DNA of 64,000 nucleotides from contig CAVQEM010000084.1 in the NCBI GenBank assembly GCA_963711485.1, positions 50,180 through 114,179 of the forward strand, written 5' to 3'. The position numbers were made by a program, and so were the translations under genes. How positions within the stretch are numbered: the stretch's first letter is position 1; every line of letters starts with the position of its first letter. This DNA comes from an uncultured Actinomycetes bacterium. Lineage in GTDB: Bacteria; Actinomycetota; Actinomycetes; Streptosporangiales; Streptosporangiaceae. Below, piece by piece: positions 18,492-39,351 of this stretch. The notes under the pieces are model-generated. The model worked only from the letters and a program-made list of their open reading frames with translations, did not search any database and had not been told where the DNA came from.

Positions 18492-18529
18492 GGGGCTTGC
18501 GGCGGAGGCCTGCCCTCGGGGGACCAAAC

Positions 18530-18544: not shown

Positions 18545-18717
18545 AAATCAGGGGCGGGGTTTGCCTCCGGACTCCGTTAGTTCTGCGCCCGGATTCTTCT
18601 ACGCTCCGGGTGACCTACCTGATCCACGGGGCGGTGGAGCGTGGGCACAGTTGAGTCACCGGCAGGCACAGCACCGGCAGGACAGCCGGCGGCCGCCGCC
18701 GCCCGTGCCGCGACGAG

Positions 18718-22757: not shown

Positions 22758-23870
22758 ATGCTAGTGGGCCATGAAGACGTCCTGCTTCCCACCACGATGG
22801 TCGGGAACTATCCCAACCCGCGCTGGTACGACGGGTACGCGCACTCGAAGCTTCCGCCCGGGGCCCTGGTGTATGACTCGCTGACCCGGGAGGCCTACGA
22901 GGACGCGATCCTCGCGGTGGTGCACGACCAGGAGTCCGCCGGGCTGGACATCATCTCCGACGGCCGCGTGCACGGCGGTGACAGCCCGTACGCCCAGGTC
23001 GTGTACCACTATTTCGAGCGGCTGCGCGGGTACGAGATCGACGGGCCCCAGCTTGGGCTGCCGATCTACTCGACGCTGTTCTCCCCCACCGTGGTGGGCG
23101 AGGTGTCCAGGCGCACCTCGTTCGCGATGCCGACCCTGCGCGCGGTGCGCAAGGCGACCAAGAAGCCGGTGAAGATCTCCTACCAGGGCATTCACGTGCT
23201 CGCGGCCGCGTCCAACGACCTGTTCTACAAGGACATGAAGGAACTGGCGACCGCCATCGCGAAGGCCTATCACGAAGACTTCCTGGAGCTCGCGGAGGCG
23301 GGGGCAGAGATCATCCAGCTGGATGAGTTCCTCTGGCCGTACGAGATGAATGACTGGCAGGTCGAGGTCTTCAACCTGGCCGTGGACAATGTCCCCGGCG
23401 TGCAGTTCTGGGTGCACACCTGCTGGGGGAACTACGGCGGCACCCCGGGTTACCTGCCGGACGACACCGAGCAGGAGTACGGGGCATACGTGCTGGCCAG
23501 CCGGCAGGCGGACACGGCGGCCCCCAACCGGGCCTTCGGCATCTTCCCGAAGGTCAAGGAGGCCCACCTGACCGCGCTGAACTGGGAGGTCGGCCGGACC
23601 GGCCCGGACGACCTGAAGCCGCTCGCCGAGAACAACTGGGATAGGGACTTCGTGGCGGGCGTGATCGACGTGAAGTTAACCATCACCGAGACCGCGGATG
23701 AGGTCGCGGACCGGATCCGGCAGTGCCTGGAGTACGTGCCGGCCGAGCGGCTCGGGCTGACCACCGACTGCGGCCTGGTCATGCTGCAGCGGATGACGGC
23801 GCAGAACAAGCTCCGCTCGCTGGCCGAAGGCGCGGCCAAAGTCCGGGCGGAACTCGGCCAGCCGGGCTGA
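22758..23870 (+). CDS. MetE-fold (Meth_synt_2) zinc alkyltransferase, epoxyalkane:CoM transferase-like, copy 1
   Basis: AAGGAGG RBS, 370 aa. Zn ligands are H220-x-C222 (FWVHTCWGN) and C338 (TTDCGL). About 65% identical to 44196..45299. Confidence 0.75.
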   Translation: MLVGHEDVLLPTTMVGNYPNPRWYDGYAHSKLPPGALVYDSLTREAYEDAILAVVHDQESAGLDIISDGRVHGGDSPYAQVVYHYFERLRGYEIDGPQLGLPIYSTLFSPTVVGEVSRRTSFAMPTLRAVRKATKKPVKISYQGIHVLAAASNDLFYKDMKELATAIAKAYHEDFLELAEAGAEIIQLDEFLWPYEMNDWQVEVFNLAVDNVPGVQFWVHTCWGNYGGTPGYLPDDTEQEYGAYVLASRQADTAAPNRAFGIFPKVKEAHLTALNWEVGRTGPDDLKPLAENNWDRDFVAGVIDVKLTITETADEVADRIRQCLEYVPAERLGLTTDCGLVMLQRMTAQNKLRSLAEGAAKVRAELGQPG

Positions 23871-23919: not shown

Positions 23920-24960
23920 ATGGAAATTCGTGGCGAAGAAGTCCTGCTCCCCGTCTCGGCGGTGTCGGCGTTCCCCCGGCCGCACTGGCTGCAGGGGCGC
24001 GTCCTCGGCTCGCTGAGCGAACCGGTGTACCGCAGCCACAACCTGCGGGTGGCCTACGAGGATGCCTGTCATATCTGCGCGGACGAGCAGGAAAAGGCCG
24101 GGCTGGACATCCTGTGCGACGGCGCCCAGTACTACGAGTGGGAAGCGCCCGGCTTCCAGCTGGAGCCGATCTTCCACTTCATCCCGGAGAACCTGGGCGG
24201 CTTCCGGCCGTACGGTCCCCCTGGTGAGGGTGCCAAGTACCGGCCGTTCTACCAGGCCGTGGTCAAGGACAAGATCACCTGGGAGCGGCCCATCTTCGAG
24301 AGCGTGGTCATGACCATGCAGAACGTCACCGACAAGCCGTTCAAGGTGGCGTTCCTCGGCCCGGCCCAGCAGAGCGTCATCGTCAAGGACGAGTACTACG
24401 GCGACCAGATCGCGGTGGCCCGGGATCTGGCCATCGCGCTCAATCAGGAGCTGAAGTACCTCGTCAGCATCGGGCTGGAGGCGGTGCAGCTGATCGACGT
24501 GCTGGCGCCGTACACCACGGACATGTGGCAGATCGAGATGCAGAACATCCTGTTCGACGGCGTGGACGCGATCAAGTTCTGGCACATCTGCTACGGCAGC
24601 GTGGACGGCCAGCGGGACATCTTCGACAACCACGCCACCTCGATGATGCCGCTGTTCAAGGAGTCGCCCGCCGATGTGATCCACCTGGAGTTCACCAACA
24701 AGGGCTTCGACGAGCTGGAGGCGTTCCGCGACTTCCCCACCGACAAGGTGCTCGGCGCGGGCGTGGTGGACGCGAAGAACCTGCAGGTCGAGACCGCCGG
24801 GCAGATCGAGCGCCGGATCAGGCGCGTGCTGGAGGTCGTCCCGGCCGACCGGCTGCTGGTGGCACCGGACTGCGGGCTGGGGTACTTCAGCCGGACCGCC
24901 GCCTACGCCAAGCTCCGCAACATGGGGCAGGCGGCCGAGACCGTCCGAAGCACCCTGTGA
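23920..24960 (+). CDS. divergent MetE-fold zinc alkyltransferase
   Basis: 346 aa. Keeps H-x-C (FWHICYGS) and the distal Cys (APDCGLGY), but is otherwise far from the two EaCoMT-like copies. Confidence 0.7.
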   Translation: MEIRGEEVLLPVSAVSAFPRPHWLQGRVLGSLSEPVYRSHNLRVAYEDACHICADEQEKAGLDILCDGAQYYEWEAPGFQLEPIFHFIPENLGGFRPYGPPGEGAKYRPFYQAVVKDKITWERPIFESVVMTMQNVTDKPFKVAFLGPAQQSVIVKDEYYGDQIAVARDLAIALNQELKYLVSIGLEAVQLIDVLAPYTTDMWQIEMQNILFDGVDAIKFWHICYGSVDGQRDIFDNHATSMMPLFKESPADVIHLEFTNKGFDELEAFRDFPTDKVLGAGVVDAKNLQVETAGQIERRIRRVLEVVPADRLLVAPDCGLGYFSRTAAYAKLRNMGQAAETVRSTL

Positions 24961-25027: not shown

Positions 25028-25721
25028 ATGCGTATGACCGCAGAGGTGGGCCGCGAGGTGCTGGGCCTGCAGCTGCGCGTGGGCGATCACATCTGCGGCT
25101 TCTACCGCCAGCCCTCCGAGCGTGATGACATCCTCATCCCCTTCCTGATCGAGGGGCTCAAGGCGGGTGACAAGTGCACCTGCGTGGTGGACAGCTGCAC
25201 CCCGGAGGACGTGCTGGCCGGCATGGCCGAGCACATCGAGGTGGAGCCCTACCTGTCAGACCGCCAGCTCGAGGTGCTCGACTCCTACGGGACCTATCTG
25301 GCCGAGGGTGGCTTCCTGCCTGAGCGGATGCTGAAGTTCTGGGAGGGCAAGGCCCGCCAGAGCCTGGGCGGGGAGCGGCCCGGAGGCGGGGAGGCGGGGC
25401 GGGGAGCGGCCCGGAGGCGAGGAGCAGGTCAGCCCGGACGCCCCCATGCGGGCCCGGAACATCGGGGACATGAGCTGGGCGCACCGCGACGAGGCGGTGG
25501 TCAGTGACCTGATGGGCTACGAATCCGAGCTGAACCGGATCATGTCGAACTTCCCCCAGGTCAACCTCTGCCTCTACGACCTGACCCGGTGCTCCGGGGA
25601 CCTGATCATGGACGTGCTGAAGACGCACCCCAAGGCGCTGCTCGGCGGCATGGTTATCGACAACCCGTACTACCTGGACCCCGACGAGTTCCTGGCCAGC
25701 AGGCTGGACCGTGACAGCTGA
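25028..25721 (+). pseudogene. MEDS-domain protein, copy 2, disrupted by a 31-nt tandem duplication
   Basis: The N-terminal part is in the frame of 25028 and the C-terminal part (GYESELNRIMSNFPQVNLCLYDL...) in the frame of 25446. Deleting 25367-25397 restores a single ORF. Confidence 0.75.
25367..25428 (+). repeat. 31-nt imperfect tandem duplication (28/31 identical)
   Basis: ggcggggagcggcccggaggcg occurs twice exactly 31 nt apart. Confidence 0.9.
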
Positions 25722-26516
25722 GCCAGGCATAACGGCTCCCCCGGCTGCCGCGCGGATCCCGGCCGAGCGGACCCATCACGGCGACACCGTGATCGACGAG
25801 TACGCGTGGCTGGCCGGCAAGGAGAACCCGGAGACGATCGCGTTCCTGAACGCCGAGAACGCCTACACGCAGGCGCTGACCGCGGGCCAGGCCGCCCTCC
25901 GCGACACGATCTTCGGCGAGATCAAGGCCCGGACCCAGGAGACGGACCTGTCCGTGCCCACCCGCAAGGGCGGCTGGTGGTACTACTCCCGGACGGTCGA
26001 GGGGAAGCAGTACGCGCTGCACTGCCGGCGGGCCGTCCGGGCGGAAGACACCGGACCGCCCGGGACCGGTCAGGGCGGTCCGCTGGACGGCGAGGGGCCG
26101 GACGGGGGGCCGCTGGACGGCGAGGAGGTCCACCCGCCGTCGTGGCGCCGCGGCGCCAGCGCGTGGAGTACGAGGTCGAGCACCAGGGCAGCACGGACGG
26201 CACCGGCCGGCTGCTGATCCTGCACAACGACCACGCGGAAAAGTACCCGCCCGTGCTGGCGGTCACCAGCCTCAACGACACCAGGGTGCTCTACACCGAG
26301 CCGGCCAAGTGGATCGCCCGGCTCCAGGCGGGGGCACGGGGCGGCCCGTTCCTGCTGAAGACCGAGATGACCGCCGGGCACGGCGGCCGCAGCGGCCGGT
26401 ACGACGCGTGGCACGAGGAGGCCCTGGTGCTGGCCTGGATCGTGGCCACCGTCTCGGGCATCCCCGTGATCGGGGTGGGTTTTGCGCCGCCCGCGGCGCA
26501 AAACCCACCCCGATAA
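25711..26516 (+). pseudogene. ptrB: oligopeptidase B (S9A) remnant with large internal deletions
   Basis: The N-terminal ~130 aa is intact (HGDTVIDEYAWLAGKENPETIAFLNAENAYT...). It is followed only by a propeller fragment (EYEVEHQGS..LLILHNDHAE) and the last ~70 aa (VLAVTSLNDTRVLYTEPAKWIARLQ...TEMTAGHGG), in a second frame. Confidence 0.7.
26469..26514. terminator. 46-nt perfect palindrome (22-bp arms), a bidirectional terminator candidate
   Basis: atcggggtgggttttgcgccgc-cc-gcggcgcaaaacccaccccgat, between the convergent ptrB remnant and the aldehyde dehydrogenase. Confidence 0.6.
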
Positions 26517-26555: not shown

Positions 26556-28082
26556 TCACCGGCCGTAGGCGTGCCAGTGCGCGCCGAACAGGGCTTCCTC
26601 GCTGATCGTCTTGGGCTCGATGGGCCGGGACACCCAGGTCAGGTTGACGAAGTGCCGCGCGTTGACGTTCTCGGTGGTGATGTTGCCGCCCCAGGCCCCG
26701 CAGCTGAGGCTGAGCGTGAACGGCAGGCCGTTGCGCGGGCTGCCCGCCCCCTCGTTCATGTTCTGGTTCACCAGCACGCGGGCGGTCCGGGTCGTCAGGG
26801 CCAGCCGTTCCACGTTCGCGTCCGAGCTGCTGTGGATGCCGCAGGTGTGGCCGAGCCCCTGGTAGGCGGTGATGGCGTTGACGAGGTCCGCGGCGGCGCT
26901 GATGCCGCCCTCGTACCGGTAGACGGCCAGCACCACGGACAGCTTCTCGCCCGAGAACGGATGATCCGGGCCGGTGCCCGTCTCCTCGACCATGATCATC
27001 GGGCAGGCCGGATCGAGCCCGAAGCCGGCCAGCCCCGCGATGTGCGCCGCGGACTTCGCCACCACGGCGGCCGCGGGCACCGGGCCGCCGTCCGGCCACA
27101 TCACCTGGCGCAGCGCCTCCTTCTGCTCCGCGTCGCACCGGTGCGCCCCGGCCTCGGTCAGCCGCCAGACCAGCTCGTCGTATACGTCCGCGTGGACGAC
27201 CAGGGCGTTGTCGGCCAGGCAACTCGTGGCGTAGTCGAAGGTCTTCGCGGCGAGGATGGCGGAGGCCGCGTCGGCCAGGTCAGCGGTCTCGTCCACCACA
27301 TGCACGGCGTTGCCCACCCCCACCCCGTAGGCCGGGGTGCCGGAGCTGTACGCGGCGTGCACCATGCCCGCGCCGCCGGTCGCGACGATCAGGTCAGCCT
27401 GGCGCATCAGCTCCTGGGTCTTCGGCAGCGACGGCGCGGGCAGCGACTGGACCAGGTCCGCGGGCGCGCCGACCTGCTCGCACGCGGCCCGCATGAACCC
27501 GGCCACCGCCTCGGTGGCGCCGGTGGTCCGCGGGTGCGGCGCGCAGATGATCGCGTTCCGGCCCTTGAGCGCGAACAGCGCCTTGACCGGCGGGGTCGCG
27601 TCCGGCCCGGTGGTCGGGATCAGCGCGGCGACCACCCCGACCGGCTTGGCGATTTTCACCAGGCCGGCCGAGGGCAACTCCTCCACGACCCCGACGGTCC
27701 GCAGCCCGGTCATGTCGGCCAGCACGCCGGTCACCCGTTTGTTGATCTTCGCGACCTTGTCCGTGTAGTTGCCGAACCCGCCCTCGTCCACGGCGAGCCG
27801 GGCCAGCGCCTCGGCGTGGTCCTTGCGCACCACAGCCCAGGCCACCGCCGTGACCAGCTCGTCCACCTGCTCCTGGGTGTAGGACTCGATGGCGCGGGCG
27901 GCCGTGCGGGCCCGGGCCACGACCGCCGCGACCTCGCTGGCCACCGGGCTGGCTTGCGCCGCGCTGGCTCCTGCCGGGCTGGCTCCTGCCGGGCTGGCTT
28001 GCGCCGGGCTGGGGCCCGCCGGGCTGGCCGTCTCAGGGCTGGCCACCACGGGGCCGTGCTTGCTGCTGCTGCGCTCCGTCAT
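26556..28082 (-). CDS. CoA-acylating aldehyde dehydrogenase (EutE/SucD/SauS-like)
   Basis: 508 aa starting at MTERSSSKHG. Motifs IPTTGPDATPPVKALFALKGRNAII and TFDYATSCLADN (catalytic Cys). The N-terminus carries a 15-nt repeat. Confidence 0.8.
   Translation of the reverse strand: MTERSSSKHGPVVASPETASPAGPSPAQASPAGASPAGASAAQASPVASEVAAVVARARTAARAIESYTQEQVDELVTAVAWAVVRKDHAEALARLAVDEGGFGNYTDKVAKINKRVTGVLADMTGLRTVGVVEELPSAGLVKIAKPVGVVAALIPTTGPDATPPVKALFALKGRNAIICAPHPRTTGATEAVAGFMRAACEQVGAPADLVQSLPAPSLPKTQELMRQADLIVATGGAGMVHAAYSSGTPAYGVGVGNAVHVVDETADLADAASAILAAKTFDYATSCLADNALVVHADVYDELVWRLTEAGAHRCDAEQKEALRQVMWPDGGPVPAAAVVAKSAAHIAGLAGFGLDPACPMIMVEETGTGPDHPFSGEKLSVVLAVYRYEGGISAAADLVNAITAYQGLGHTCGIHSSSDANVERLALTTRTARVLVNQNMNEGAGSPRNGLPFTLSLSCGAWGGNITTENVNARHFVNLTWVSRPIEPKTISEEALFGAHWHAYGR
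27946..28050. repeat. 7 x 15-nt tandem repeat (gggctggctcctgcc-like) encoding SPAGA pentapeptides in the ALDH N-terminus
   Basis: Read directly from the sequence. Confidence 0.85.
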
Positions 28083-28214
28083 GCTGCCCAGCGTGACGCC
28101 CGGAGGCGGCGATTCCACTGTTCTGGCGGGTCGAGCCTGCCCCGCTTCTTTGTCCTGGTAAGACCTGACTGCGGTGGCGGCGCGGCCCGCATGCTCGGAT
28201 GACCGGGCGTCGAG

Positions 28215-29624
28215 GTGATGGGAGCACGGGTGGCACGGCTCGTGGTGATCGGCGGCGGCGCCGCCGGGATGTCGGCCGCCTCGGCGGCCCGGCGCACCGA
28301 CCCCGGCCTCGACGTGGTGGTCTGCGAGGCAGGCGGCTTCGCCGCCTACGGCATGTGCGGGATCCCGTATTACCTGGGGGGCACCGTCGCAGCGCCGGAG
28401 GACTTGCTCGCCTATCCCCCGTCTGCCTTCCGCGAGGAGCGCGGCATCGACCTGCGGCTGCACACCCGGGTCACCGGGATCGACCCGGCCGCCCGGCAGG
28501 TGCGGCTGGCCGCCGGGACTCCCGCGGCGCAGGCTCCATCGGCCACCACGGGGGAGCCGCTGGCTTACGACGCGCTGGTGGTGACCAGCGGCGCCGACCC
28601 GGTCCGCCCGCCGATACCCGGCCTCGACGACCGCCGCGTGTTCACGATCCGGTCCCTGGACGAGGCGATCGGGCTGCGGCGGCTGCTGGCCAGCCGCACC
28701 ATGCGCCGCGCGGTCGTGGTGGGTGCCGGGTACGTCGGCCTGGAGACCGCGGAGGCCCTGGTCTGCGCGGGCGTGGACGTGGAGGTAGTCGAGGCGCTGC
28801 CCGGGGTGCTGGGCACCGTGGACGAGCCAGTCGCCGCGCTGGCCCAGGCCGAGGTCGAGCGGCACGTGAAGCTGCGGCTCGGCGCCCGGCTGGAGGCGGT
28901 GGACCAGGGCAGCACCCCGGCCGGCTGCCTGACCGCGGTGGTGGAAGGCGAGGAGATCCCCGCCGACGTGGTGGTCATCGCGGTTGGCGTCCGCCCCGCC
29001 ACGGACCTGCTGATCCAGGCGGGTGCCAGGCACCTGCCGGATGGGTCGGTGGTGGTGGACGCCGGGATGCGCACCTCGCTGCCGGACGTGTTCGCGGCGG
29101 GGGACGCGGTCGCGCTGCCGCACCTGGTGCTGGGCCGCCCCGCCTGGGTCCCGCTCGGTCCCGCCGCCAACAAGACCGGCCGGGTGGCCGGGACCGTGGC
29201 CGCCGGGGGGACCGCCTCGTTCCGGGGCGTGGTCGGCACCGCGGTGGTGAAGGTCTTCGACCTGGAGGTGGCCCGGACCGGGCTGGGGCTGGCCGAGGCG
29301 CAGGCGGCCGGGCTGGATGCGGTGGCGACCGACGAGGTGTCCCGGTCCCGGGCCAAGTACTACCCGGGCAGCTCGCCGCTGCACGTCCGGCTGGTGCACA
29401 CCCGGGAGGGGCGGCTGCTCGGCGGGCAGCTCGCGGGCCGGGAGGGCGCCGCCAAGCGTGTCGACGTGCTGGCCACCGCGCTGCATGCCGGGTTCAGCGT
29501 GGAGGACCTGGCGGCGCTCGACCTCAGCTACGCCCCGCCGTTCGCGCCGGTCTACGACCCGGTGCTGGCCGCCGCCATCAAAGCCACCCGCGGTCTGGCC
29601 GCGTTCACTGGAGGATCCCCATGA
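28215..29624 (+). CDS. FAD-dependent pyridine nucleotide-disulfide oxidoreductase, CoA-disulfide reductase / NADH oxidase class
   Basis: LVVIGGGAAGMSAA, a single active-site Cys in AAYGMCGIPYY, a second Rossmann VVVGAGYVGLE, and AAGD. Transcribed divergently from the ALDH. Confidence 0.75.
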   Translation: MMGARVARLVVIGGGAAGMSAASAARRTDPGLDVVVCEAGGFAAYGMCGIPYYLGGTVAAPEDLLAYPPSAFREERGIDLRLHTRVTGIDPAARQVRLAAGTPAAQAPSATTGEPLAYDALVVTSGADPVRPPIPGLDDRRVFTIRSLDEAIGLRRLLASRTMRRAVVVGAGYVGLETAEALVCAGVDVEVVEALPGVLGTVDEPVAALAQAEVERHVKLRLGARLEAVDQGSTPAGCLTAVVEGEEIPADVVVIAVGVRPATDLLIQAGARHLPDGSVVVDAGMRTSLPDVFAAGDAVALPHLVLGRPAWVPLGPAANKTGRVAGTVAAGGTASFRGVVGTAVVKVFDLEVARTGLGLAEAQAAGLDAVATDEVSRSRAKYYPGSSPLHVRLVHTREGRLLGGQLAGREGAAKRVDVLATALHAGFSVEDLAALDLSYAPPFAPVYDPVLAAAIKATRGLAAFTGGSP

Positions 29625-30553
29625 GCCTGCGCCCACCGGCCGACAAGCGGGCCAGCCTGGCCGACGCGGCCGCCCTGGTCATCGACGGCGCCATGGTCGC
29701 GCTCGGCGGTGGCCTGTCCGCCCGGCTGCCCATGGCCCTGGTCCGCGAGCTGGTCCGGCAGCGCCGGAGCGGCCTGCACCTGGTCGGGTCGGCGCACAGC
29801 ATCGACGTGGACATGCTCGTGGGTGCCGGGGCCGTCCGCCGGTGCGAGGAAAGTTACGTCGGCTTCGAGCAGGACCTCGGGCTGGCTCCCGCGTACCGCC
29901 GGGCCGCCGAGGAGGCCACGATCGAGGTGGCGGAGAGCTGCTGCGCCACGATCCTGGCCCAGCTGCGGGCGGCCGAGATGGGGGTGCCGTTCCTGCCCGT
30001 CCGCGGGGTCCGCGGCTCCGACATCGTCCGGCTGCACCCCGAGTACGCGGAGGTCACCTGCCCGTTTACCGGGGAGACACTGGTCGCCGTGCCCCCGCTG
30101 CGCCCCGATGTGGCGCTGCTGCACGCGCCGTCCGGGGACCGCTACGGCAACCTGCACCTGGAGCAGCCGTACGTGCTGGACGAGCGGTTCGCCTCCGCGT
30201 CACGGATGGTCATCGCGACCGTCGACGAGCTGGTCTCCACCGAGCAGGTGACCGCGGCAGGCGTCACCGTCCCCGGGCACCTGGTGGCGGCCGTCGCGCA
30301 CGTCCCGTTCGGGGCCCATCCGGCGTCCTGCTACCCGCGCTACGCCTATGACCGCAGCCACCTGCGTGAGTACGTGGCCGCGGCCCAGTCCGGGCCGGAG
30401 GGCCTGGACAAGTACCTGGCCGCCTACGTGCAGGACAGCGAGGAGAGCTACCGGGGCGCGATCGGCCCCGACCGGCTCTCCCGGCTGGCCGCCTGGTCCC
30501 GGTCCACCGACGCGTGGCAGGAGCTGTTCTCACAGGCGGGAGACTCCGCATGA
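29621..30553 (+). CDS. CoA-transferase subunit A (glutaconate-CoA-transferase-like)
   Basis: ASLADAAALVIDGAMVALGGG ... GDRYGNLHL. ATGA overlap with the upstream gene. Confidence 0.8.
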   Translation: MSLRPPADKRASLADAAALVIDGAMVALGGGLSARLPMALVRELVRQRRSGLHLVGSAHSIDVDMLVGAGAVRRCEESYVGFEQDLGLAPAYRRAAEEATIEVAESCCATILAQLRAAEMGVPFLPVRGVRGSDIVRLHPEYAEVTCPFTGETLVAVPPLRPDVALLHAPSGDRYGNLHLEQPYVLDERFASASRMVIATVDELVSTEQVTAAGVTVPGHLVAAVAHVPFGAHPASCYPRYAYDRSHLREYVAAAQSGPEGLDKYLAAYVQDSEESYRGAIGPDRLSRLAAWSRSTDAWQELFSQAGDSA

Positions 30554-31393
30554 GCTGGACCATCGACGAGTGGTTCGTGGTGGCGCTGGCCCGGACCATC
30601 CGGCCCCGGGAAACGGTGTTCCACGGCTTCGGCAGCCCGTGCGCACAGGTCGCGATGCACGTGGCCCGGCGCACCCACGCCCGGGACATGGTGCTGGTCG
30701 AGGGCGCCATGTACGCGATCAACCCCGACCCCCCGTTCATCCCGCCGACCAGCAACGACGACAGCCTGCGCCGGGGCGCGGCGTACAGCATGCGGTTCGA
30801 GGAGTTCTTCGACGCCGCGGTCCGCGGCGACGTGGACCGGATGTTCCTGTCCGGCGGGCAGATCGACGGGTACGGCAACACCAACGTCACCGCGATCGGG
30901 CCGGCTGGCCAGGCCGAAGGTGAAGCTGGGCGGCGGGGGCGGCGGCTGCAACCTGTCCGCCACCATCGGCCACCTCACGGTCTGGACCACCCGGCACCGC
31001 TCCGGCCGGACCCTGGTCCGCGACTGCGACTTCGTCACCGACATGGGCCACCGCACCCGGCTTGGCACCCGGGCCGAGCTCGGCTTCACCGGCGGCGGCC
31101 CGCAGTGGCTGGTCACCGAGCTGGGCGTGTTCGACTACCCGCAGGGGCAGGCCCGGCTGGTGCAGGTGTTCCCGGACGTCAGCGTGGCCGAGGTCCGCGC
31201 GGCCACCGGCTTCGCCCTGCAGGTGGCCGGGGACCTGCGCCCGGTCCCGCCGCCGTCGGTGTCCGAGCTGGCCGCGGTCCGCTCGGTGGACCCGCTCGGA
31301 GTCCGGACATCGGAGTTCTCCCCGAAGGAGCTGGCCAGAGTCTTCGAGAGCAGGGCGTCCGTCCAGGGGCACGGCCAGGACTGCGCATGCTGA
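30550..31393 (+). CDS. CoA-transferase subunit B, frame break near 30910
   Basis: The N-terminal half is in the frame of 30550 (...GQIDGYGNTNVTAIGPAGQ). The C-terminal half is in the frame of 30920 (KVKLGGGGGGCNLSATIGHLTVWTTRH...). ATGA overlap with subunit A. Confidence 0.7.
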
Positions 31394-33567
31394 ACGGCCG
31401 GGACGGCCTGGCGGCGGTGTTCGCGCCGCGCCGGGTCGCCCTGGTCGGGGCGTCCGCCCGGCCCGGCTCGGTCGGCCGGCTGCTGTGGGACAACCTGGCC
31501 GGCTTCCCCGGCGACGTCGTGCCGGTGGGCCAGGCGGCCCGTGTCGGCGGCCTGGTGGCCTACCCTGGCCTGCGGGACGTTCCCGGCGACGTGGACCTGG
31601 CCGTGGTCGCCACGCCTGCCGCCACCGTCCCGGGCATCGTCCGGGACGCCGCGAGCAAAGGCGTCGCCGCCGTGGTCGTGCTCAGCGCGGGCTTCGCGGA
31701 GACCGGCGACGAGGGCGCGCACCTGCAGGCCGAGGCGGTAGCCGCCGCCCGGGCGGGCGGGGTGCGGCTGGTCGGCCCCAACTGCTTCGGGGTGCAGAAC
31801 GCCGACCTGCCGCTGAACGCCTCGATCGCGGCCGGCATGCCGCGCGGCGGCGGGGGCGTCACGATCGTCACCCAGTCCGGGTCGTACGGGATGGCCGTGC
31901 ACGCGCTGGGCCAGGACGAGGGCCTGCGCGTGGCCAAGGTGTTCGCGGCCGGCAACAAGGCGGACATCACCGACGCGGAACTGCTCGCGTACCTGAGGCG
32001 GGACCCGGGCACCTCGGTTATCTGCCTGGTGCTCGAGTCGATCACCGACGCCCGCGGGTTCTTCAGGGAAGCCTGCCTGACCACACCGGACAAGCCGGTC
32101 GTCGCGGTCGTGGGCGGCCGGACCAGCGCCGGGCAGCGGGCCGCCATGTCGCACACCGCCGCCCTGGCCACCGACGACGCGGTCCGCGACGCGGCGCTGC
32201 GCCAGGCGGGCGTGGTCCGGGTGCGCACCGGCCTGCAGGTGCTCGACGCGGCCCGGGCCCTGTCCAGCCAGCCGGTGCCCCGCGGCGGCCGGGTGGCAGT
32301 GGTCACCAACTCCGGCGGCACCGGGGTGGAGCTGACCGACCTGCTCGCCGACGAGGGCCTGGCGGTCCCGGAGCTGAGCGGGACCCTGCAGAAAGAGCTC
32401 CGGGCCATCATGCCGGCCTACGCCAGCGCCCGGAATCCGGTGGACATGACGCCGGCCTGGAAGCTGTTCACCACCGTGTACCCGGGCGCGATCGAGATGC
32501 TGGCCCGGTCGGGCGAGGTCAACGTGGTCGTGCCGGTGTTGCTGCAGCGGTCCGCGTCGGCCGGGGTCGCGGCCGCGGTCCGGGACGCGGTGGAGCGGCT
32601 GCGGGCGGACCGGGTGCCGGTGCCGGTCTACGTGTGCTGGGTCGCGCCGCGGTCCGCGGATGAGCACGCCCGGGTGCTGCACGAGGCCGGGGTGCCGTGC
32701 TTCGCGTGGCCGGAGCGGACGGCGCGGGTGGTGGGCGTGGCGGTGCGCTGCGGTGCCGGGCTGCGGCGGGAGAAAGACCAGACGCCCGGTACTCGGGCAC
32801 CGGGCACTGAAAACCCGCCCCCGGGGACGGAGACCGGGGCACCGGTGGACGTGCGCGCGCCGGGGCGGCGCGCGCACGTCCACCGGGCACCCCGGCCTGC
32901 CCTCGATGGCCCCGCCGCGCCCCTGCGGGGCTCCCCGGCGAACGGTTTCCTGTCGCCGGCCACCGCGCGCGACGTGCTGGCCGAGGCTGGGATTCCGGTG
33001 ATCGAGACCGTCCTTTGCGGCAGTCCGGAGGAGGCAGCCGCGGCCGCGCAGCGGCTCGGCTACCCCGCGGTGGCGAAGGTCGATCACCCGGACCTGATCC
33101 ACAAGAGCGATGCCGGCGGGGTGCGCCTGGGACTGGCCTCGGCGGACGAGGTCGCCGGAGCGGCGGCCGAGCTGCTCGGGCTGGCGGAGGGGGCAGGAAT
33201 ACTGGTGCAACGCCAGCATCAGGGGGTGGAGCTGCTGGTCGGCGGGATCCGGGACCCGGAGTTCGGGGCCATGGTGATGGCCGGCCTGGGCGGCGTGCTG
33301 GCCGAGACTCAGCGTGACGTGCAGCTGGCCGTGGCCCCGGTGGATACCGGGCAGGCCCGGGCGATGCTGTCGTCGTTGCGGGGCGCCGCGATCCTCGGCG
33401 GGCTGCGCGGCAGTCCGCCGGTCCACCTGGGTTTCGTTGCGGAAATTATCGTGGCCGTCGGCGACCTTATGGCTGCGCACCCTGAGATCGCCGAGCTCGA
33501 CCTGAACCCGGTACTGGCTGGGCCCGACGGGTGCGTGGCCGTCGACTGGCGGATTGGCACCCGGTGA
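31387..33567 (+). CDS. ADP-forming acyl-CoA synthetase (CoA-binding + succinyl-CoA-ligase-like + ATP-grasp)
   Basis: RRVALVGASARPGSVG, LVGPNCFGV, TQSGSYG, and C-terminal ATP-grasp GYPAVAKVDHPDLIHKSDAGGV. Overlaps subunit B by 7 nt. Confidence 0.8.
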   Translation: MLNGRDGLAAVFAPRRVALVGASARPGSVGRLLWDNLAGFPGDVVPVGQAARVGGLVAYPGLRDVPGDVDLAVVATPAATVPGIVRDAASKGVAAVVVLSAGFAETGDEGAHLQAEAVAAARAGGVRLVGPNCFGVQNADLPLNASIAAGMPRGGGGVTIVTQSGSYGMAVHALGQDEGLRVAKVFAAGNKADITDAELLAYLRRDPGTSVICLVLESITDARGFFREACLTTPDKPVVAVVGGRTSAGQRAAMSHTAALATDDAVRDAALRQAGVVRVRTGLQVLDAARALSSQPVPRGGRVAVVTNSGGTGVELTDLLADEGLAVPELSGTLQKELRAIMPAYASARNPVDMTPAWKLFTTVYPGAIEMLARSGEVNVVVPVLLQRSASAGVAAAVRDAVERLRADRVPVPVYVCWVAPRSADEHARVLHEAGVPCFAWPERTARVVGVAVRCGAGLRREKDQTPGTRAPGTENPPPGTETGAPVDVRAPGRRAHVHRAPRPALDGPAAPLRGSPANGFLSPATARDVLAEAGIPVIETVLCGSPEEAAAAAQRLGYPAVAKVDHPDLIHKSDAGGVRLGLASADEVAGAAAELLGLAEGAGILVQRQHQGVELLVGGIRDPEFGAMVMAGLGGVLAETQRDVQLAVAPVDTGQARAMLSSLRGAAILGGLRGSPPVHLGFVAEIIVAVGDLMAAHPEIAELDLNPVLAGPDGCVAVDWRIGTR

Positions 33568-33627
33568 TCACTGCAGGCCGGCTGGCCGCCGCGGCCGGGA
33601 GGGTGGTTGCCCTGGCGGCCGGCGACG

Positions 33628-35079
33628 TCAGGCCGGGGTCCCCTGGATGGTCGTGAACCCCTGGAAGTGGCCGTTGAGTACGTGTCCGGCCAGGGCCAGC
33701 AGGTCGGCCTCGGAGAACGGCTTCTCCACGAGGGCCACGCCCGGGTCGAGCCTGCCCTGGGAGGCGAGGACGGGCCGGGCGTAGCCGGACATGAAGATCA
33801 CTTCGATCCCTGGTTTGAGCAACCGCATTTTCTCGGCGACCTCCTTGCCGAGCATGTGCGGCATGACCACGTCGGTGACCAGCAGGTGGATCTCGCCCGG
33901 GTGGCCAGTGGCGATGCTGAGGGCCTCCGGGCCGTTCGCGGCGGTGATCACCTGGTAGCCGTTACGGCTGAAGATCCGCCTGGTCACCTCGCGCAGCGCT
34001 TCCTCATCCTCAACGACCAGGACCGTCTCTCCCTTGGGTGCCCGCTGGTACGGCATGGGCTCTGCGATCGGGGCGGCTCCCTCGGCGGTGGCAGGCAGCG
34101 TGATGATGAAGGTCGTGCCGTGGCCAGGTTCGGAGTAGATCCGGATGTCCCCGTCGGCCTGGGTCAGGATCCCGTAGACGGTGGCCAGGCCGAGCCCGGT
34201 TCCGCCGCCGTCCGGCTTGGTGGTGAAGAACGGCTCGAATACGTGCTGCGCAACGCCGGCTGGCATTCCGATGCCGGTGTCGCTGACCCGCAGCCGCACG
34301 TTCCGGCCCTTCTGCGCCCTGGATCCCCCGGCGATGGCGTCAGCGTCGACGGTGATGTTGCCGGTGTCGATGGTCAGCGTGCCGCCGGCGGGCATGGCGT
34401 CACGGGCATTGACCGCGAGATTCACCAGCACCTGCTCCAGCTGGCCAGGATCGGCCAGCACCGGCCACAGGTCACCGGCCAGCGAGGTGACCAGCTCGAC
34501 ATGCTCCCCGATGGTGCGGCTCAGCAGTTCCTCCACCGCGGTGATGACGGTGTCGATGTCGAGGACCTGCGGCCGGATCACGTCGCGCCGGGCGAAGACG
34601 AGCAGTTGGTGGGTCAGCCCGGCCGCCCGTTCGGCGGCCTTCTTGATCTGCTCGAGGTCAGCGCTGGCCGACGCCAGGTGCCGGGCCGGGTCAGGCCCGG
34701 CCGCGGCGGCGACGTCCTCGGAGACGAAGGACACGTAGTTGAGGATCACGGCGAGCAGGTTGTTGAAGTCGTGCGCGACGCCCCCGGCGAGCTGGCCGAG
34801 GCTTTCCAGGCGCTGGGCCTGCGCCTGCAGTCGCCCTTTCCGCTCCAGGGACTCCCGGGCATCGCCGCGCTCGGTGCCGGCGCTGGCCGCAGCCGTCTCC
34901 CCGGGGCCGGGCTGGCCGGCGCATGGCCACTCGCTGTCGGCTGGGCCATGTGAATCATCTCCAGACTGGCCGGGAGGCGCCTGCCGCGCCGGGGGCAGCC
35001 GATCAGCACGTGCCGGGCCCTCGGGACAGGGAAGGCTTTCCCTCCGGGCACCTCGGGCCGGCCGTGCGCACGCAACCAA
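33628..35079 (-). CDS. hybrid histidine kinase / response regulator with no recognisable sensor domain (start uncertain)
   Basis: HisKA LGQLAGGVAHDFNNLL, HATPase DTGIGM..GTGLGLA, and C-terminal receiver VLVVEDEE...VTDVVMP. Confidence 0.75.
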   Translation of the reverse strand: MVACARPARGARRESLPCPEGPARADRLPPARQAPPGQSGDDSHGPADSEWPCAGQPGPGETAAASAGTERGDARESLERKGRLQAQAQRLESLGQLAGGVAHDFNNLLAVILNYVSFVSEDVAAAAGPDPARHLASASADLEQIKKAAERAAGLTHQLLVFARRDVIRPQVLDIDTVITAVEELLSRTIGEHVELVTSLAGDLWPVLADPGQLEQVLVNLAVNARDAMPAGGTLTIDTGNITVDADAIAGGSRAQKGRNVRLRVSDTGIGMPAGVAQHVFEPFFTTKPDGGGTGLGLATVYGILTQADGDIRIYSEPGHGTTFIITLPATAEGAAPIAEPMPYQRAPKGETVLVVEDEEALREVTRRIFSRNGYQVITAANGPEALSIATGHPGEIHLLVTDVVMPHMLGKEVAEKMRLLKPGIEVIFMSGYARPVLASQGRLDPGVALVEKPFSEADLLALAGHVLNGHFQGFTTIQGTPA

Positions 35080-35093
35080 GCTGTGCCGCGCCG

Positions 35094-35165
35094 CGACGGC
35101 ACCGGCCCGGACGACGGCACCGGCCCTGACGACGGCACCGGCCGGGGCGACGGCACCGGGCCAGG
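35094..35165. repeat. 4 x 18-nt tandem repeat (cgacggcaccggcccgga-like)
   Basis: Read directly. Lies just upstream of, or within the 5' end of, the hybrid kinase gene. Confidence 0.85.
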
Positions 35166-35458
35166 ATTGTTACTAAAAGTAAAGACTATCAGACTCTGGG
35201 TAGTCACCTGAGCCGGCGGGCAGCGGCACTCACCGGCGGGACGATCCGCCGCCGGCCGTCCCGGGAGGGGTACGCCTGGCTGGCCTGACGGACATCACAT
35301 CACGTCACGTCACCGGGGCGCCCCCTGCCCGGCCCGGGGCAAAGCATTGCGACTCGGGCCGTATTGCCCCGCCAGCCGCCGGATCCGGTGGCAAACGGAT
35401 CGGGGAAAACCCTCATCCAGGACAGGCCGCAATTCTCTGGGGCACAGGCGGCGATTTC

Positions 35459-36432
35459 TTGACACTGGCTATGAAGGCACAAAGACCCAGCAATAAATCC
35501 GCGGGAGCTGTCATGAATACCAATCGGAACCCATCGCCGGAAGACGCCCGAAATCCGTCCGGCGAGGCGAGTGCCCCGGCCGGCCACTCTCGCGCCCGGG
35601 GGTGGCGCCCGCGCACGATCCGGGCGAAGGTCAGCATCGGAGCAGTCGCCGCGGCCGGTGCCACCGGCCTGGCGCTGGCCCTGGTCGCGGGCCCGGCCGG
35701 CGCCGCGACCAAGCCGGTCTGGACCATGACCGCCGGGAACGTCCAGACGCTGAGCCAGACCGACCCCAGCATCGCGTCGTACTTCTTCAACACCCCCGCG
35801 GCTTACGGCGAGGGGGCCAGCCTGGTGCACACGCCTGTCCAGGCCGGGTACGCCACCACGCCGGTGCTGTCGTACACGTCCTACGCCCAGTTCGCCTCCG
35901 ACATCCAGAGCGGCGCCATCACCTACCCCTACAAGTGGGTCATGTACGACCCGGAGGAGTGGTCCGCCACCCCGGTCAGCGAGCAGCAGGACCCGGCCAG
36001 GTACATGACCCTGTTCGGCCAGCTGGCCCACGCCCACGGGCTGAAGGTCATCCAGGCTCCCGCCCTGGACCTGGCGTACGTCACGGGCTCTGTCCTCCCA
36101 CGGCAGCCAGGCGAGACGGCCGACCAGTGGTACATCCGGGTCAACATCGCCGGGTCGGCCGCGGCCGCGGGTGACATCTTCGTGCTCCAGGACGAGTCGA
36201 ACACCACCGCCGGGGGCAGTACGCGTACATGTTCAACACGACCGAGACCCAGGCGCAGGCCGCGAACTCCAGCATCCAGGCGTTCTCCGAGGTCTCGACG
36301 TCCAACGGGACCGCGGCCCAGATGGCCACGGCGGCCCAGTCCATCAGCCCGGCTGGCTTCTATGTCGCGGCCGCGGGGAACATGCCCCAGACTGACCAGT
36401 TCTTCCAGCTGATGAAGACCGCAGGCTACTGA
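35459..36432 (+). CDS. secreted hypothetical protein, frame break at the G5 run 36212-36216
   Basis: Signal-like RTIRAKVSIGAVAAAGATGLALALVAGPAGAA. The frame of 35459 continues into the frame of 36229 (QYAYMFNTTETQAQAANS...). Confidence 0.5.
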
Positions 36433-36533
36433 CAAGCGGCAGGTTTTCTGAGGCAACCGCACCCGCTCCGCGGGCCCGGCACCGGCCGGCCCGCGGAGCG
36501 GCATGTTCGCGTCCCGGTGCTGGGCGGCTGCGC

Positions 36534-37523
36534 TCAGCCGAACGATCTCACCCCGGCGCGGAAGGCCGCGACCGCGGCCGGGTGATCATCCAGCCGCCAG
36601 TCCTGGTGGTAGGGCCCCCGATGCTGGTTCGCGTCGAAGTAAAGCAGGCCCAGCAGGTGATCGCGGCGGATGCCGGCGAACAGGCCGTGAATCTTCGCGG
36701 CCTGCCCGGCGCGCGGCCCGATGCCGACCTCGGAGAGAAGGACCGGCTTGCCGGTGAACTTCCGGATGTTTCTCACGGCCTTGCCGATGACGGTCCCGAA
36801 CGTGTCGGCCGGCCTGACGTAGTAGCCATCGATGCCGACCCAGTCCACGTAGCGGGGGCCCGGCCACCAGTTCCGGACGCGCGCCATGGCGTGGCCGTTC
36901 CCGCTCATGACCCACAGCCAGGTCACGTTGGTTGCGCCGGACCGGCGGAACACCTCTACGACATGCCGCCATGCCGCCACCCACTGGGCGGGGCTCGCAT
37001 GGCGCCAACCCCAGGGGTACCAGCGGCCATCCGCCTCGGGGGCGAAGCTTATGATGACGTGGCCGCCGTAGTGGCGGACCGCCGCAGCGAACCGGCGCAG
37101 GTAGCGGTCTGAGTTCCCGGCGGCGATGGCGGCCATGGATTGGTGCCAGGGCTCCATGTGCACCAGCACCACGGCTCCGGCCCGCGCAGCCGCGGTCGCA
37201 AAGTGGGCCCGGAACGGCGTGCCCCAGCTGCTGTAGTAGACGGTGAGGTTGGGCTTGCGGCCGGCCACCGGGGAAAAGAGCGTCGCCGGCCGGTAGGTAC
37301 TGGATGAATCACGCTCGAAGACGCCCAGGTAGTGCATCGGGCCAGGGTTGCCGATGGCCGCCTCGGGAGAGGGTGCGGATCTGGCCGCCGGAAGCGCGAC
37401 CAGGCGCCCGCGCTCGCGGGCTGGTTCGTGCCGGTACAGCCACAGGGCCGAGCCCGCACCGGTGACCGTGATGGTCACCCCCACCGCCGCGATGAGCGCC
37501 GCCACGAGCCTAGCTCTGTTCAC
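36534..37523 (-). CDS. GH26-like glycoside hydrolase with N-terminal TM anchor
   Basis: GTG at 37523 overlaps the upstream stop (GTGA). ISFAPEADGRWYPWGW resembles the GH26 catalytic block. Confidence 0.65.
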   Translation of the reverse strand: MNRARLVAALIAAVGVTITVTGAGSALWLYRHEPARERGRLVALPAARSAPSPEAAIGNPGPMHYLGVFERDSSSTYRPATLFSPVAGRKPNLTVYYSSWGTPFRAHFATAAARAGAVVLVHMEPWHQSMAAIAAGNSDRYLRRFAAAVRHYGGHVIISFAPEADGRWYPWGWRHASPAQWVAAWRHVVEVFRRSGATNVTWLWVMSGNGHAMARVRNWWPGPRYVDWVGIDGYYVRPADTFGTVIGKAVRNIRKFTGKPVLLSEVGIGPRAGQAAKIHGLFAGIRRDHLLGLLYFDANQHRGPYHQDWRLDDHPAAVAAFRAGVRSFG

Positions 37524-38967: not shown

Positions 38968-39351
38968 GCTGAGATCCCGAACACGATCCAGATCACGGCG
39001 CCGAACCCCGGACCGTCTTTCACGAAGTTTCCCCCATTGATTGCGTTAAGCGGCGGATCATCATCGTAGGTCGCCATGATCCAGGAAATCCTCCCCGAGA
39101 GTGACCGGCTTTCGGTCATGGACATCATACAATTCCCGGGCCGGGGGTTCAGGTAAACATTCTAGGCTCTTATATCTTCTAATTTGCTTGCTGTTCCACC
39201 AGGTGCTTTTGGATTAACGCGCTATATCTCCGGTGCTATCCGGAAGAAGCACCAATCCACCCGAATCCTGGGCACCCGGGGCACGAGAGGCGCGGCGCCC
39301 GCGCACGAGACGCGCTGGCGGCGGGATTGACGTCCCTCGACACGGCGTTGG

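Follow-up and report, generated by a model that had tools for sequence, protein, structure and literature searches.

How 2-oxoethyl-coenzyme M (2-oxoethyl-CoM) becomes acetyl-CoA in bacteria that degrade ethene and vinyl chloride has been a question since the early 2000s, one that bears on the bioremediation of vinyl chloride and on the cycling of ethylene in soil. The closest described systems are the etn gene clusters. On published maps of these clusters, among them those of NBB4, Nocardioides sp. JS614, and M. rhodesiae JS60, the relevant genes are drawn as CoADR, SDR, CoATa, CoATb, ACoAS, and ACDH (PMC8727900). On plasmid pMYCCH.02 of M. chubuense NBB4, the promoter Petn was mapped experimentally in the 167-bp region directly upstream of MYCCH_RS29030; it is responsive to epoxyethane and under the control of EtnR1 and EtnR2. 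The operon transcribed from Petn is headed by MYCCH_RS29030 and reads oxidoreductase-SDR-...-EtnR2-EtnR1-CoAT A-CoAT B-ACS-EtnE-EtnABCD, where SDR is a short-chain dehydrogenase/reductase, CoAT a CoA-transferase, and ACS an acyl-CoA synthetase (PMC11197473). We analyzed the corresponding genes in 64,000 nucleotides of DNA from an uncultured actinobacterium (contig CAVQEM010000084.1 of assembly GCA_963711485.1, positions 50,180 to 114,179; hereafter, the window). Five genes at 26556-33567 very probably constitute the lower part of a CoM-dependent pathway for C2 epoxides, in which a CoM-bound carbonyl is converted to an acyl-CoA and CoM is regenerated. Such a module is already known: its linkage to CoM genes and its epoxide-responsive promoter have been published, with the genes described as "predicted".

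A five-gene module beside coenzyme M genes

The G+C content of the window is approximately 72%. Open reading frames alone therefore say little, and genes were taken from a frame plot of third-position G+C content (GC3), followed by profile searches (Pfam and NCBIfam) and matches to structures in the PDB. In the block of interest, an aldehyde dehydrogenase (ALDH) gene on the minus strand diverges from four genes on the plus strand:

26556-28082, minus strand: acylating ALDH of the EutE/AdhE-N/SucD type, nearest to SauS, 508 aa (Pfam Aldedh)
28083-28229, no strand: divergent intergenic region with blocks conserved in 27 related loci
28230-29624, plus strand: single-Cys flavoprotein of the CoA-disulfide reductase (CoADR)/NADH oxidase family, 464 aa (Pfam Pyr_redox_2, Pyr_redox, and Pyr_redox_dim)
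29621-30553, plus strand: CoA-transferase subunit A (CoAT-A), glutaconate CoA-transferase family, 310 aa (Pfam CoA_trans)
30550-31393, plus strand: CoA-transferase subunit B (CoAT-B), its frame broken by an extra A at 30911, an intact 280 aa in relatives (frame plot, translations, and alignments)
31387-33567, plus strand: NDP(ADP)-forming ACS, alpha and beta parts fused through a low-complexity linker, 726 aa (Pfam)

An earlier note on this DNA, made from the sequence alone, had placed the same five genes here, in agreement with the GC3 plot, the Pfam and NCBIfam matches, and the PDB matches. The gene overlaps that it described are exact: CCATGAGC contains the ATG of CoAT-A (29621) and the TGA of the flavoprotein gene (29622-29624), GCATGAGC contains the ATG of CoAT-B (30550) and the TGA of CoAT-A (30551-30553), and the 7-nt ATGCTGA contains the ATG of the synthetase gene (31387) and the stop codon of CoAT-B (31391-31393). 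A GGAGGA ribosome-binding site lies 5 nt 5' of the CoAT-A start. The ALDH start, ATG 28082, is backed by a CAT that is kept in the alignment of related loci. As judged from the sequence, the flavoprotein most likely begins at GTG 28230, not at GTG 28215: GGGAG precedes the former, which is kept in 27 related loci and at which database protein P0001 (464 aa), identical to the flavoprotein, also begins; the latter is not conserved among related loci. Given this start, the divergent layout stands as first described, with the intergenic region ending at 28229 and not at 28214.

Synteny provides evidence that the genes belong together. Flavoprotein homologs were compared in 80 species-level genomes, comprising 53 loci at 55% identity or more, 49 of them with enough downstream sequence, and 27 loci at 50% identity or less. 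In the first group, CoAT-A and CoAT-B were encoded downstream of the flavoprotein in 49/49 loci, followed by the ACS in 47/49, while a CoM marker was present in the locus in 46/53 and the ALDH in 41/53. Four of the seven loci without a CoM marker are short or truncated (L015, L033, L036, and L049); the other three span 11-21 kb. In the second group, which includes Chloroflexota, Acidobacteriota, haloarchaea, and others, CoAT-A/B, the CoM marker, and the ALDH were each found in 0/27. Chance adjacency of a generic CoA module is ruled out by the split of 49/49 versus 0/27. Thus, the flavoprotein, the CoA-transferase, and the ACS, with or without the ALDH, form an obligately linked unit across approximately 50 actinobacterial species, and the proposal that the five genes are one functional module tied to the CoM genes is supported, with synteny kept in all 49 actinobacterial species loci that extend far enough. 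Loci of the Pseudonocardia/Kineosporia/Actinomycetospora type have the order CoADR>SDR>SDR>CoATA>CoATB>ACS>ALDH>MEDS>PucR. The ALDH there lies in the same operon, directly after the ACS, which makes it a member of the module.

The CoM/etn plasmids of M. chubuense NBB4 and Nocardioides JS614 were the sole matches of a DNA search, and orthology and synteny extend to NBB4 pMYCCH.01 and pMYCCH.02 and to JS614 pNOCA01. Cultured carriers include Amycolatopsis nalaikhensis, Nocardioides marmoriginsengisoli, Actinomycetospora sp. NBRC 106375, Kineosporia sp. R_H_3, and Longivirga aurantiaca. Within the window itself, the module is physically linked to genes for epoxyalkane:CoM transferase (EaCoMT), CoM biosynthesis, 2-ketopropyl-CoM oxidoreductase/carboxylase (2-KPCC), and a regulator pair of the EtnR2/EtnR1 type.

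Soil metatranscriptomes contain contigs 90-99% identical to the whole module, and single contigs bridge the flavoprotein/CoAT-A, CoAT-A/CoAT-B, and CoAT-B/ACS junctions. In three runs, the depth over the module was similar to that over the 2-KPCC/SDR/EaCoMT and CoM-biosynthesis blocks and approximately 5-13 times that over the intervening polysaccharide genes, with the proviso that contig depth is a poor measure of expression, that DNA carry-over is possible, and that the flank is less conserved among strains. These data fit, if weakly, co-transcription of the module and its joint expression with the CoM genes. When runs X25, X27, and X28 were compared with window positions 12500-51500, transcripts from close relatives covered nearly all of the CoM supercluster (2-KPCC, the SDRs, E1 alpha/beta, EaCoMT, and CoM biosynthesis among them). 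Relatives approximately 95% identical occur in many peat, wetland, and permafrost metagenomes, and the uncultured lineage seems common and active. That uncultured actinobacteria of soil and peat carry and transcribe the whole CoM pathway, mostly without an adjoining monooxygenase, points to a wider environmental role of CoM-dependent epoxide metabolism.

Candidate reactions and their alternatives

The scheme that we favor for the module, all steps of which we infer, has as a whole slightly better than an even chance of being correct. In this scheme, an SDR would oxidize 2-hydroxyethyl-CoM to 2-oxoethyl-CoM, an anionic sulfonate aldehyde that the SauS-like ALDH would convert, with CoA and NAD(P)+, to CoM-S-CH2-CO-SCoA; a CoM-acetyl-CoA route had been the second role considered in the earlier note. 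A flavoprotein would strip CoM from this thioester reductively to yield acetyl-CoA. The glutaconate-type CoA-transferase would re-activate the free acid, carboxymethyl-CoM, with acetyl-CoA as the donor, and the NDP-forming synthetase would prime or balance the pool of CoA and acetate. The single-Cys enzyme would be the dedicated sulfur reductase of the pathway, either attacking the thioether sulfur itself or reducing a disulfide left by the cleavage step. A mixed disulfide, Cys43-S-S-X, would be reduced by FADH2/NADH, with X being CoM or a CoM-containing disulfide and not CoA alone.

The flavoprotein has its PDB matches at 6ruz (1.4e-97) and the CoADR of P. horikoshii (4fx9, 1e-82). It has the fold, the domain set, the glycine motifs, the redox-active Cys43, and the C-terminal Y-A-P-P-F in common with the CoADR/NADH oxidase/persulfide reductase group (6ruz, 4fx9, 3kd9, 1yqz, and 3ntd); specifically, the Rossmann glycine motifs for FAD and NAD(P)H and the dimerization domain are retained. 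The single conserved Cys that had been ascribed to it is indeed present: Cys43, in AAYGMCGIPYY, is the sole Cys that is invariant across 81 homologs. However, the protein misses all three NCBIfam equivalog cut-offs for CoADR (TIGR03385, 350.4 versus 578.8; NF007123, 336.1 versus 458; NF010037, 203.1 versus 394), and it differs from the group by Ala in place of Ser39, a residue that never varies in the other homologs, Pro63 in place of Thr, Lys376 in place of His, and further clade-specific changes. Ten positions are fixed in the CoM-linked clade: A39, P63, A266, A295, T316, V323, D368, K376, R387, and Y442. Other homologs carry Ser at position 39, Thr at 63, Glu at 295, Gln at 316, Asn at 323, His at 376, Lys at 387, and Trp at 442. 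This signature separates CoM-linked flavoproteins from ordinary CoADR/Nox enzymes, and the clade to which the window protein belongs occurs only beside CoM and CoAT genes. Hundreds of homologs that are 80-96% identical occur in soil and peat metagenomes and metagenome-assembled genomes (MAGs), some of them labelled "Streptosporangiaceae bacterium".

Two of the clade-specific residues can be placed on a structure. P63 and K376 align to P67 and H367 of the Pyrococcus enzyme, which are among four channel-wall residues of P. horikoshii CoADR whose mutation altered substrate access (PMC6026696). A Lys in this channel would suit a sulfonate. In addition, NADH may be the preferred cofactor, judging from the acidic residue that follows the second Rossmann strand (VEVVEA).

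The earlier note had called a reductase of this type unexpected here. It is not: the gene is the conserved first gene of the NBB4 etn catabolic operon and the "CoADR" of published etn maps (PMC8727900), and homologs occur in the CoM clusters of Methylohalobius and Xanthobacter Py2 (PMC11507031, Table S2). The CoM-linked reductase role that the same note suggested is plausible. A parallel is found in Rhodococcus AD45, the gene cluster of which contains an induced CoADR-family "disulfide reductase" gene for which thiol recycling has been suggested (PMC4676930, PMC9804861, PMC10057887). Tentatively, and as a possibility more than an expectation, the CoM-linked clade (at least 55% identity; A39, P63, A295, and K376) could be the missing CoM-releasing or CoM-recycling reductase of aerobic bacteria, cycling via Cys43-S-S-CoM. 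Such an enzyme may reduce CoM homodisulfide and mixed disulfides, or it may cleave the thioether of CoM-S-acetyl-CoA to acetyl-CoA and CoM. If this holds, an activity that has had no gene would gain one, and the last steps of ethene and vinyl chloride assimilation would be closed.

The ALDH is acylating and SauS-like, as NCBIfam scores and motifs indicate; its acylating character had been claimed in the earlier note. It matched the SauS model (NF047625) over its full length (model positions 4-464 of 464) with 523.9 bits, short of the equivalog cut-off of 600 bits; scores on the AdhE (378 bits) and EutE (324 bits) models were well under its SauS score. The nearest PDB entries are an acylating succinate-semialdehyde dehydrogenase (8cei) and AdhE. 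All of 43 homologs retain the catalytic Cys, in KTFDYATSCLADN, and the acylating-ALDH motifs ATSCLADN and SLSCGAWGGN (C-terminal CG-WGG-N). Identity to the NBB4 and JS614 ALDHs is 70-73%, and the N-terminus is of low complexity, rich in Ala, Ser, and Pro. SauS, the acylating sulfoacetaldehyde dehydrogenase of sulfoacetate degradation, thus shares a full-length match and the catalytic Cys with the window protein; by contrast, the latter scores below the equivalog cut-off, has no neighboring sauT or xsc, and stands in the context of CoM-dependent epoxide metabolism. The substrate of SauS, sulfoacetaldehyde, is a small sulfonate aldehyde that we infer to be similar to 2-oxoethyl-CoM.

The same resemblance raises the alternative that the ALDH and the flavoprotein serve the biosynthesis or salvage of CoM, either through the conversion of sulfoacetyl-CoA to sulfoacetaldehyde or by replacing the reduction catalyzed by XcbA, with the flavoprotein keeping CoM reduced. 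SauS is the best NCBIfam match of the ALDH, and the homologous ALDH of Methylohalobius is listed as "sulfoacetaldehyde dehydrogenase (CoM biosynthesis)" and is regarded there as analogous to XcbA in function (PMC11507031). Methylohalobius, a methanotroph of the Gammaproteobacteria, and M. rhodesiae JS60 share 70% identity in that enzyme, as compared to 36-54% in other cluster proteins; Py2, which has XcbA, contains no ALDH homolog above 30% (PMC11507031, Table S2). The conservation of the ALDH is unusually high and its distribution patchy. The flavoprotein gene, moreover, is divergent from comA in many genomes. Nevertheless, sulfoacetaldehyde is not an intermediate of the bacterial CoM pathway that has been proven, and that pathway ends with the reduction of a thioaldehyde (PMC9457059), which is not ALDH chemistry. 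The flavoprotein gene is translationally coupled to CoAT-A and heads the NBB4 catabolic operon, which fits catabolism better, and a Cys-rich DUF7714 protein in the biosynthesis operon is a more obvious substitute for XcbA. We regard a role in cofactor supply as very improbable.

Both subunits of the CoA-transferase are homologous to GctA/GctB and belong to family I, the glutaconate type. CoAT-A matched AibA (5mzw, 8e-36), IpdA (6co6), and GctA (1poi_A, 3.6e-28), and is 69-70% identical to the NBB4 and JS614 proteins. CoAT-B matched AibB, IpdB, and GctB (1poi_B, 1.3e-18), and for both subunits the Aib and Ipd proteins scored better than those of Gct. The E51-G-A of CoAT-B (in MVLVEGAM) is invariant in 52 homologs, and Glu51 is the putative counterpart of the catalytic Glu54 of GctB. 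In our reading of the alignment, the mutant chains of AibB differ (Ala or Ser) at the adjacent position, and no Glu is present there in AibB. The invariant Glu51 favors a true transferase over an AibAB-like decarboxylase or an IpdAB-like hydrolase, but a lyase-type activity is conceivable. Enzymes of the Gct family probably accept substrates with a distal anionic group. The synthetase is of the ACD type: Pfam places CoA_binding_2 (PF13380), Succ_CoA_lig (PF13607), Ligase_CoA_2 (PF19045), and ATP-grasp_5 (PF13549) in one chain, and the translation contains the phosphohistidine motif MSHTAAL. On the NCBIfam models for acetate--CoA ligase (ADP-forming), it remained below the cut-offs.

A transferase and a synthetase of this kind could also act on acetoacetate and acetate. 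In the first role considered in the earlier note, acetoacetate formed by 2-KPCC from C3 epoxides would be converted to acetoacetyl-CoA by the CoA-transferase with an acyl-CoA donor. The synthetase would recapture acetate, the ALDH would take acetaldehyde from a protonated cleavage product, and the flavoprotein would keep CoA reduced. A full propene-type set (EaCoMT, two SDRs, and 2-KPCC) is indeed present in the cluster; CoAT-A also matches, weakly, models and structures of 3-oxoacid and acetate CoA-transferases; and the conversion of acetaldehyde to acetyl-CoA is a classic reaction of the ALDH family. Nonetheless, the transferase is of the long Gct/AibAB/IpdAB type (310 + 280 aa), with matches of 1e-28 to 8e-36 as opposed to 1e-9 or weaker for the AtoDA/ScoAB types. 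The CoAT/synthetase cluster is tied to ethylene and not to propylene assimilators (PMC6440738), the ALDH scored 524 bits on the SauS model versus 324 bits on EutE, and a flavoprotein clade found only beside CoM genes is unexpected for a general CoA-disulfide reductase. An acetoacetate and acetate funnel therefore appears unlikely.

The main competitor of the favored scheme is the standing proposal of the literature, a carboxylation route. Here, 2-KPCC would cleave 2-oxoethyl-CoM reductively and carboxylate it, producing malonate semialdehyde and free CoM, the ALDH would oxidize the former to malonate or malonyl-CoA, and the Gct-type protein would make or decarboxylate malonyl-CoA to give acetyl-CoA; the CoADR-like enzyme would be an accessory "reductive decarboxylase" or a thiol housekeeper. 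The sequence from malonate semialdehyde through malonyl-CoA to acetyl-CoA, with CoADR as the "reductive decarboxylase", is stated in passages of PMC8727900 and PMC6440738 that cite Mattes et al. 2010. The window, like all known CoM clusters, encodes a true 2-KPCC ortholog, here retaining CPHQAC and FLNPEHF; malonate semialdehyde would be a carboxylate isostere of sulfoacetaldehyde, the substrate of SauS; and the nearest structure to CoAT-A/B is that of the AibAB decarboxylase, which acts on a dicarboxylic acyl-CoA. On the other side, to carboxylate and then decarboxylate is futile, the invariant Glu of CoAT-B favors a true transferase, and none of the steps of the route has been demonstrated. 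Nor does the route provide a chemical role for a single-Cys disulfide-type reductase, the synteny of which is nevertheless conserved at 100%. We consider this route doubtful, if less so than the funnel.

Several observations weigh against the favored scheme. No assay of any module enzyme from any organism was found in the literature reviewed. A complete 2-KPCC ortholog with its hallmark residues is encoded in the same cluster and in every known CoM cluster; an intact 2-KPCC could perform the C-S cleavage alone, in which case a second cleaving flavoprotein is unneeded. If the ALDH is acylating, it is hard to see why a CoA-transferase would be required as well as a synthetase. Among solved structures, CoAT-A/B come closest not to a transferase but to the decarboxylase AibAB and the ring-opening hydrolase IpdAB. 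In Methylohalobius, ethylene raised all cluster proteins but two, one of them the CoADR-like protein (PMC11507031), and specificity in this flavoprotein family is unreadable from sequence (PMC6026696). Finally, Pfam searches revealed no alkene monooxygenase (soluble di-iron monooxygenase, SDIMO; etnABCD) in the 64-kb window, and the transcript depths are subject to the limits given with them.

Reading frame, intergenic region, and surroundings of the module

The CoA-transferase was correctly identified in the earlier note, which however overlooked that subunit B is not intact. The CoAT-B gene (30550-31393) is 844 nt long, which is no multiple of 3, so it cannot be read in a single frame. The frame plot, translations, and alignments locate the shift at one surplus A, at 30911 (GGCC-A-GGCC). 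This base is missing from five relatives (95-96% nucleotide identity), from NBB4 and JS614, and from contigs of four soil and peat metagenomes, all of which encode an intact CoAT-B of 280 aa; subunit B is broken in this window alone. Over the 4.8-kb operon, identity to the relative L003 is 96%, with the extra A as the only gap. Compared with the intact genes of L003, four further genes of the window have frame breaks: PucR2 (18616-20437), MEDS2 (25034-25721), a 306-aa hypothetical protein (35513-36429), and a GT2 glycosyltransferase (37535-38820). A programmed frameshift in CoAT-B is ruled out, since the relatives all lack the extra base and have the gene in a single frame.

These four breaks, together with the restriction of the extra A to this assembly, make an assembly indel likely, and we judge that the break in CoAT-B is most probably such an indel and not biology. 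It is otherwise conceivable that the break is real and that the module is decaying in this genome. The extra A occurs in no relative, the frames of PucR2, MEDS2, the hypothetical gene, and the GT2 gene are broken as well, insertions part the ACS from EaCoMT, and no SDIMO lies within the window. Against such decay, the rest of the module genes are intact with high GC3, the operon differs from that of L003 by a single gap at 96% identity, and five single-base frame breaks in approximately 23 kb relative to intact relatives conform to the pattern that indel errors leave in a MAG assembled from long reads. The breaks across the window suggest such errors rather than widespread gene decay, and a genuinely decaying module is improbable.

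In the intergenic region (28083-28229), an alignment of 27 loci revealed three strongly conserved blocks: GATTCCACTGnTCTGGCnGGTCGAGCC, TTCTTTGTCCyGGyAAGACCTGAC, and CCGCATGCTCG. A looser version of TTCTTTGTCCyGGyAAGAC is seen again 5' of the orthologous gene of JS614, NBB4, and Amycolatopsis, and the TTGTCC element of this block resembles the TTGTCT -35 mapped in Petn of NBB4 (PMC11197473). The region is the predicted equivalent of the Petn region, which in NBB4 precedes the orthologous oxidoreductase gene. A scan of the region for a sigma-70 consensus found none, and Rfam revealed no family, riboswitch, or leader there, the search returning only a tRNA-Thr. One terminator-like hairpin is present, probably as part of a conserved block. 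The blocks were not found at other upstream regions of the cluster. Partial TTGTCCyGG-like matches occur upstream of MEDS, PucR2, and EaCoMT, and the degenerate motif is scarcely enriched (17 found versus 10.8 expected). As an operator common to the upstream regions of the cluster, the motif was rejected: the blocks are unique to this region, the degenerate form is barely enriched, and no co-regulation is drawn from it.

The module lies within a CoM supercluster. In order, this contains a MEDS and a PucR gene, 2-KPCC, two SDRs, a second PucR, E1 alpha/beta, an EaCoMT paralog, a divergent MetE-like gene, a second MEDS, the module, approximately 10 kb of unrelated genes, EaCoMT, and CoM biosynthesis genes:

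12527-13198, plus strand: MEDS sensor, EtnR2-like (Pfam MEDS)
13211-14935, plus strand: PucR/CdaR-type regulator, EtnR1-like (Pfam HTH_30 and GGDEF_2)
15175-16833, plus strand: 2-KPCC ortholog (PDB 1mo9, 4e-178), with the CPHQAC disulfide motif and FLNPEHF retained
15175-18400, plus strand: 2-KPCC followed by two SDR dehydrogenases (SDR Pfam matches)
20534-22635: E1 alpha/beta pair, thiamine-dependent
22758-23870: EaCoMT paralog
23920-24960: MetE-like gene, divergent, 28-30% identical to JS614 EtnE
44196-45299, plus strand: EaCoMT, 75-82% identical to JS614 EtnE over two aligned pieces
45311-46297, plus strand: ComA (Pfam; tblastn to JS614/NBB4)
46299-47282: DUF7714 protein between comA and the ADSL-like gene, with six Cys, e.g., in TKCCLMERG
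44196-51362, plus strand: block of EaCoMT, ComA, DUF7714, ADSL-like, PLP enzyme, and ASL-like genes (Pfam, tblastn)

The first MEDS/PucR pair is 45-52% identical to the pair of JS614; the second PucR (approximately 18.6-20.4 kb) and second MEDS (approximately 25.0-25.7 kb) both carry frame breaks. The two SDRs are 64-72% identical to those that lie inside the module in NBB4 and JS614. The E1 alpha/beta and MetE-like genes are conserved in the lineage (E1 alpha in 22/53 related loci) and in some Pseudonocardia MAGs, with no counterpart in NBB4 and JS614; they may mark an extra CoM-dependent reaction. The DUF7714 protein, named "xcbF1" in PMC8727900, might take the place of the [2Fe-2S] thioaldehyde reductase XcbA in actinobacteria.

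In many relatives the ACS gene is followed directly by EaCoMT and comA, which identifies the 10-kb gap in the window as an insertion; in L027, an EtnA/EtnC-like monooxygenase lies between. Among the 53 related loci, only L027 (EtnA + EtnC) and L018 (EtnA only) have a monooxygenase within 10 kb. The stretch 33600-35328, which has no counterpart in L003, is an insertion with a gene for a hybrid histidine kinase/response regulator (33628-35079, minus strand), and polysaccharide genes (35329-43900) also part the ACS from EaCoMT. Just past the ALDH stop, an insertion of approximately 0.7 kb relative to L003 (25751-26531) contains an S9 prolyl-oligopeptidase-type fragment (26142-26516). The locus looks chromosomal and belongs to an uncultured soil/peat lineage, given as Streptosporangiaceae in some NCBI records. 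The CoM cluster begins approximately 250 bp beyond a tRNA-Thr(TGT) gene (12199-12274, minus strand), whose orientation is at odds with the usual integration at the 3' end, and an IS66 transposase fragment (59770-60207) lies approximately 8 kb past the cluster end. The CoM cluster may be a mobile island.

Comparison with described pathways

A pathway of similar logic is known for isoprene in Rhodococcus sp. AD45 and Variovorax sp. WS11, the clusters of which encode IsoI, IsoH, IsoG, IsoJ, AldH, and a CoADR-like protein or GarB. There, a thiol cofactor captures the epoxide, a dehydrogenase and an ALDH oxidize the conjugate to an acid, a CoA-transferase turns the acid into a CoA ester, and the thiol is removed reductively; a gene of the disulfide reductase family is induced along with the pathway (PMC4676930, PMC9804861, PMC10057887). 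The cofactor differs, being glutathione, as do the CoA-transferase, which is of family III (IsoG), and the type of ALDH; removal of the thiol has been proposed for the glutathione transferase IsoJ. The likeness is one of analogy, without homology of the module.

Closer systems are found in Proteobacteria. The clusters of Methylohalobius crimeensis (H035DRAFT_2935-2948) and Xanthobacter autotrophicus Py2 (Xaut_5065-5075, its second cluster) each encode a COG0446-type flavoprotein, a glutaconate-type CoAT A/B, an NDP-forming synthetase, an SDR, and a 2-KPCC-like protein; the ALDH is present in Methylohalobius and absent from Py2 (PMC11507031). Identity to the actinobacterial proteins is approximately 36-54%, or 70% for the ALDH (values of Table S2 in PMC11507031), and the gene order differs.

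The nearest relatives remain NBB4 pMYCCH.02 (MYCCH_RS29030-RS29065) and JS614 (NOCA_RS00680-RS00700), which encode the same five families with 52-77% identity to the window proteins. The order flavoprotein, CoAT-A, CoAT-B, ACS is common to them and the window, as are an intergenic regulatory region upstream of the flavoprotein gene and the neighboring CoM biosynthesis, EaCoMT, 2-KPCC, and MEDS + PucR genes. Two copies in these model strains look like decayed duplicates: next to the module on JS614 pNOCA01 (L002), an etnE copy at 34081-35174 matches in two frames and appears frameshifted, and the synthetase on NBB4 pMYCCH.01 (L001), at 16720-18815, lacks the ATP-grasp part and has an ASL-C-like fragment instead.

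The window departs from NBB4 and JS614 in several respects. In those strains, the operon includes one or more SDRs, whereas the two SDRs of the window lie outside it, with 2-KPCC, approximately 10 kb upstream. The flavoprotein gene is there divergent from comA with the ALDH nearby, whereas in the window the ALDH takes the divergent place. The window has no monooxygenase, an added E1 alpha/beta pair, an extra MetE-like gene, and a frame-broken CoAT-B. What is new here is this lineage-specific arrangement in uncultured soil and peat actinobacteria: relative to the published clusters, the SDRs have moved out of the operon, the ALDH gene runs in the opposite direction from the flavoprotein gene, E1 alpha/beta and a second MetE-like gene are additions, and a nearby monooxygenase is lacking.

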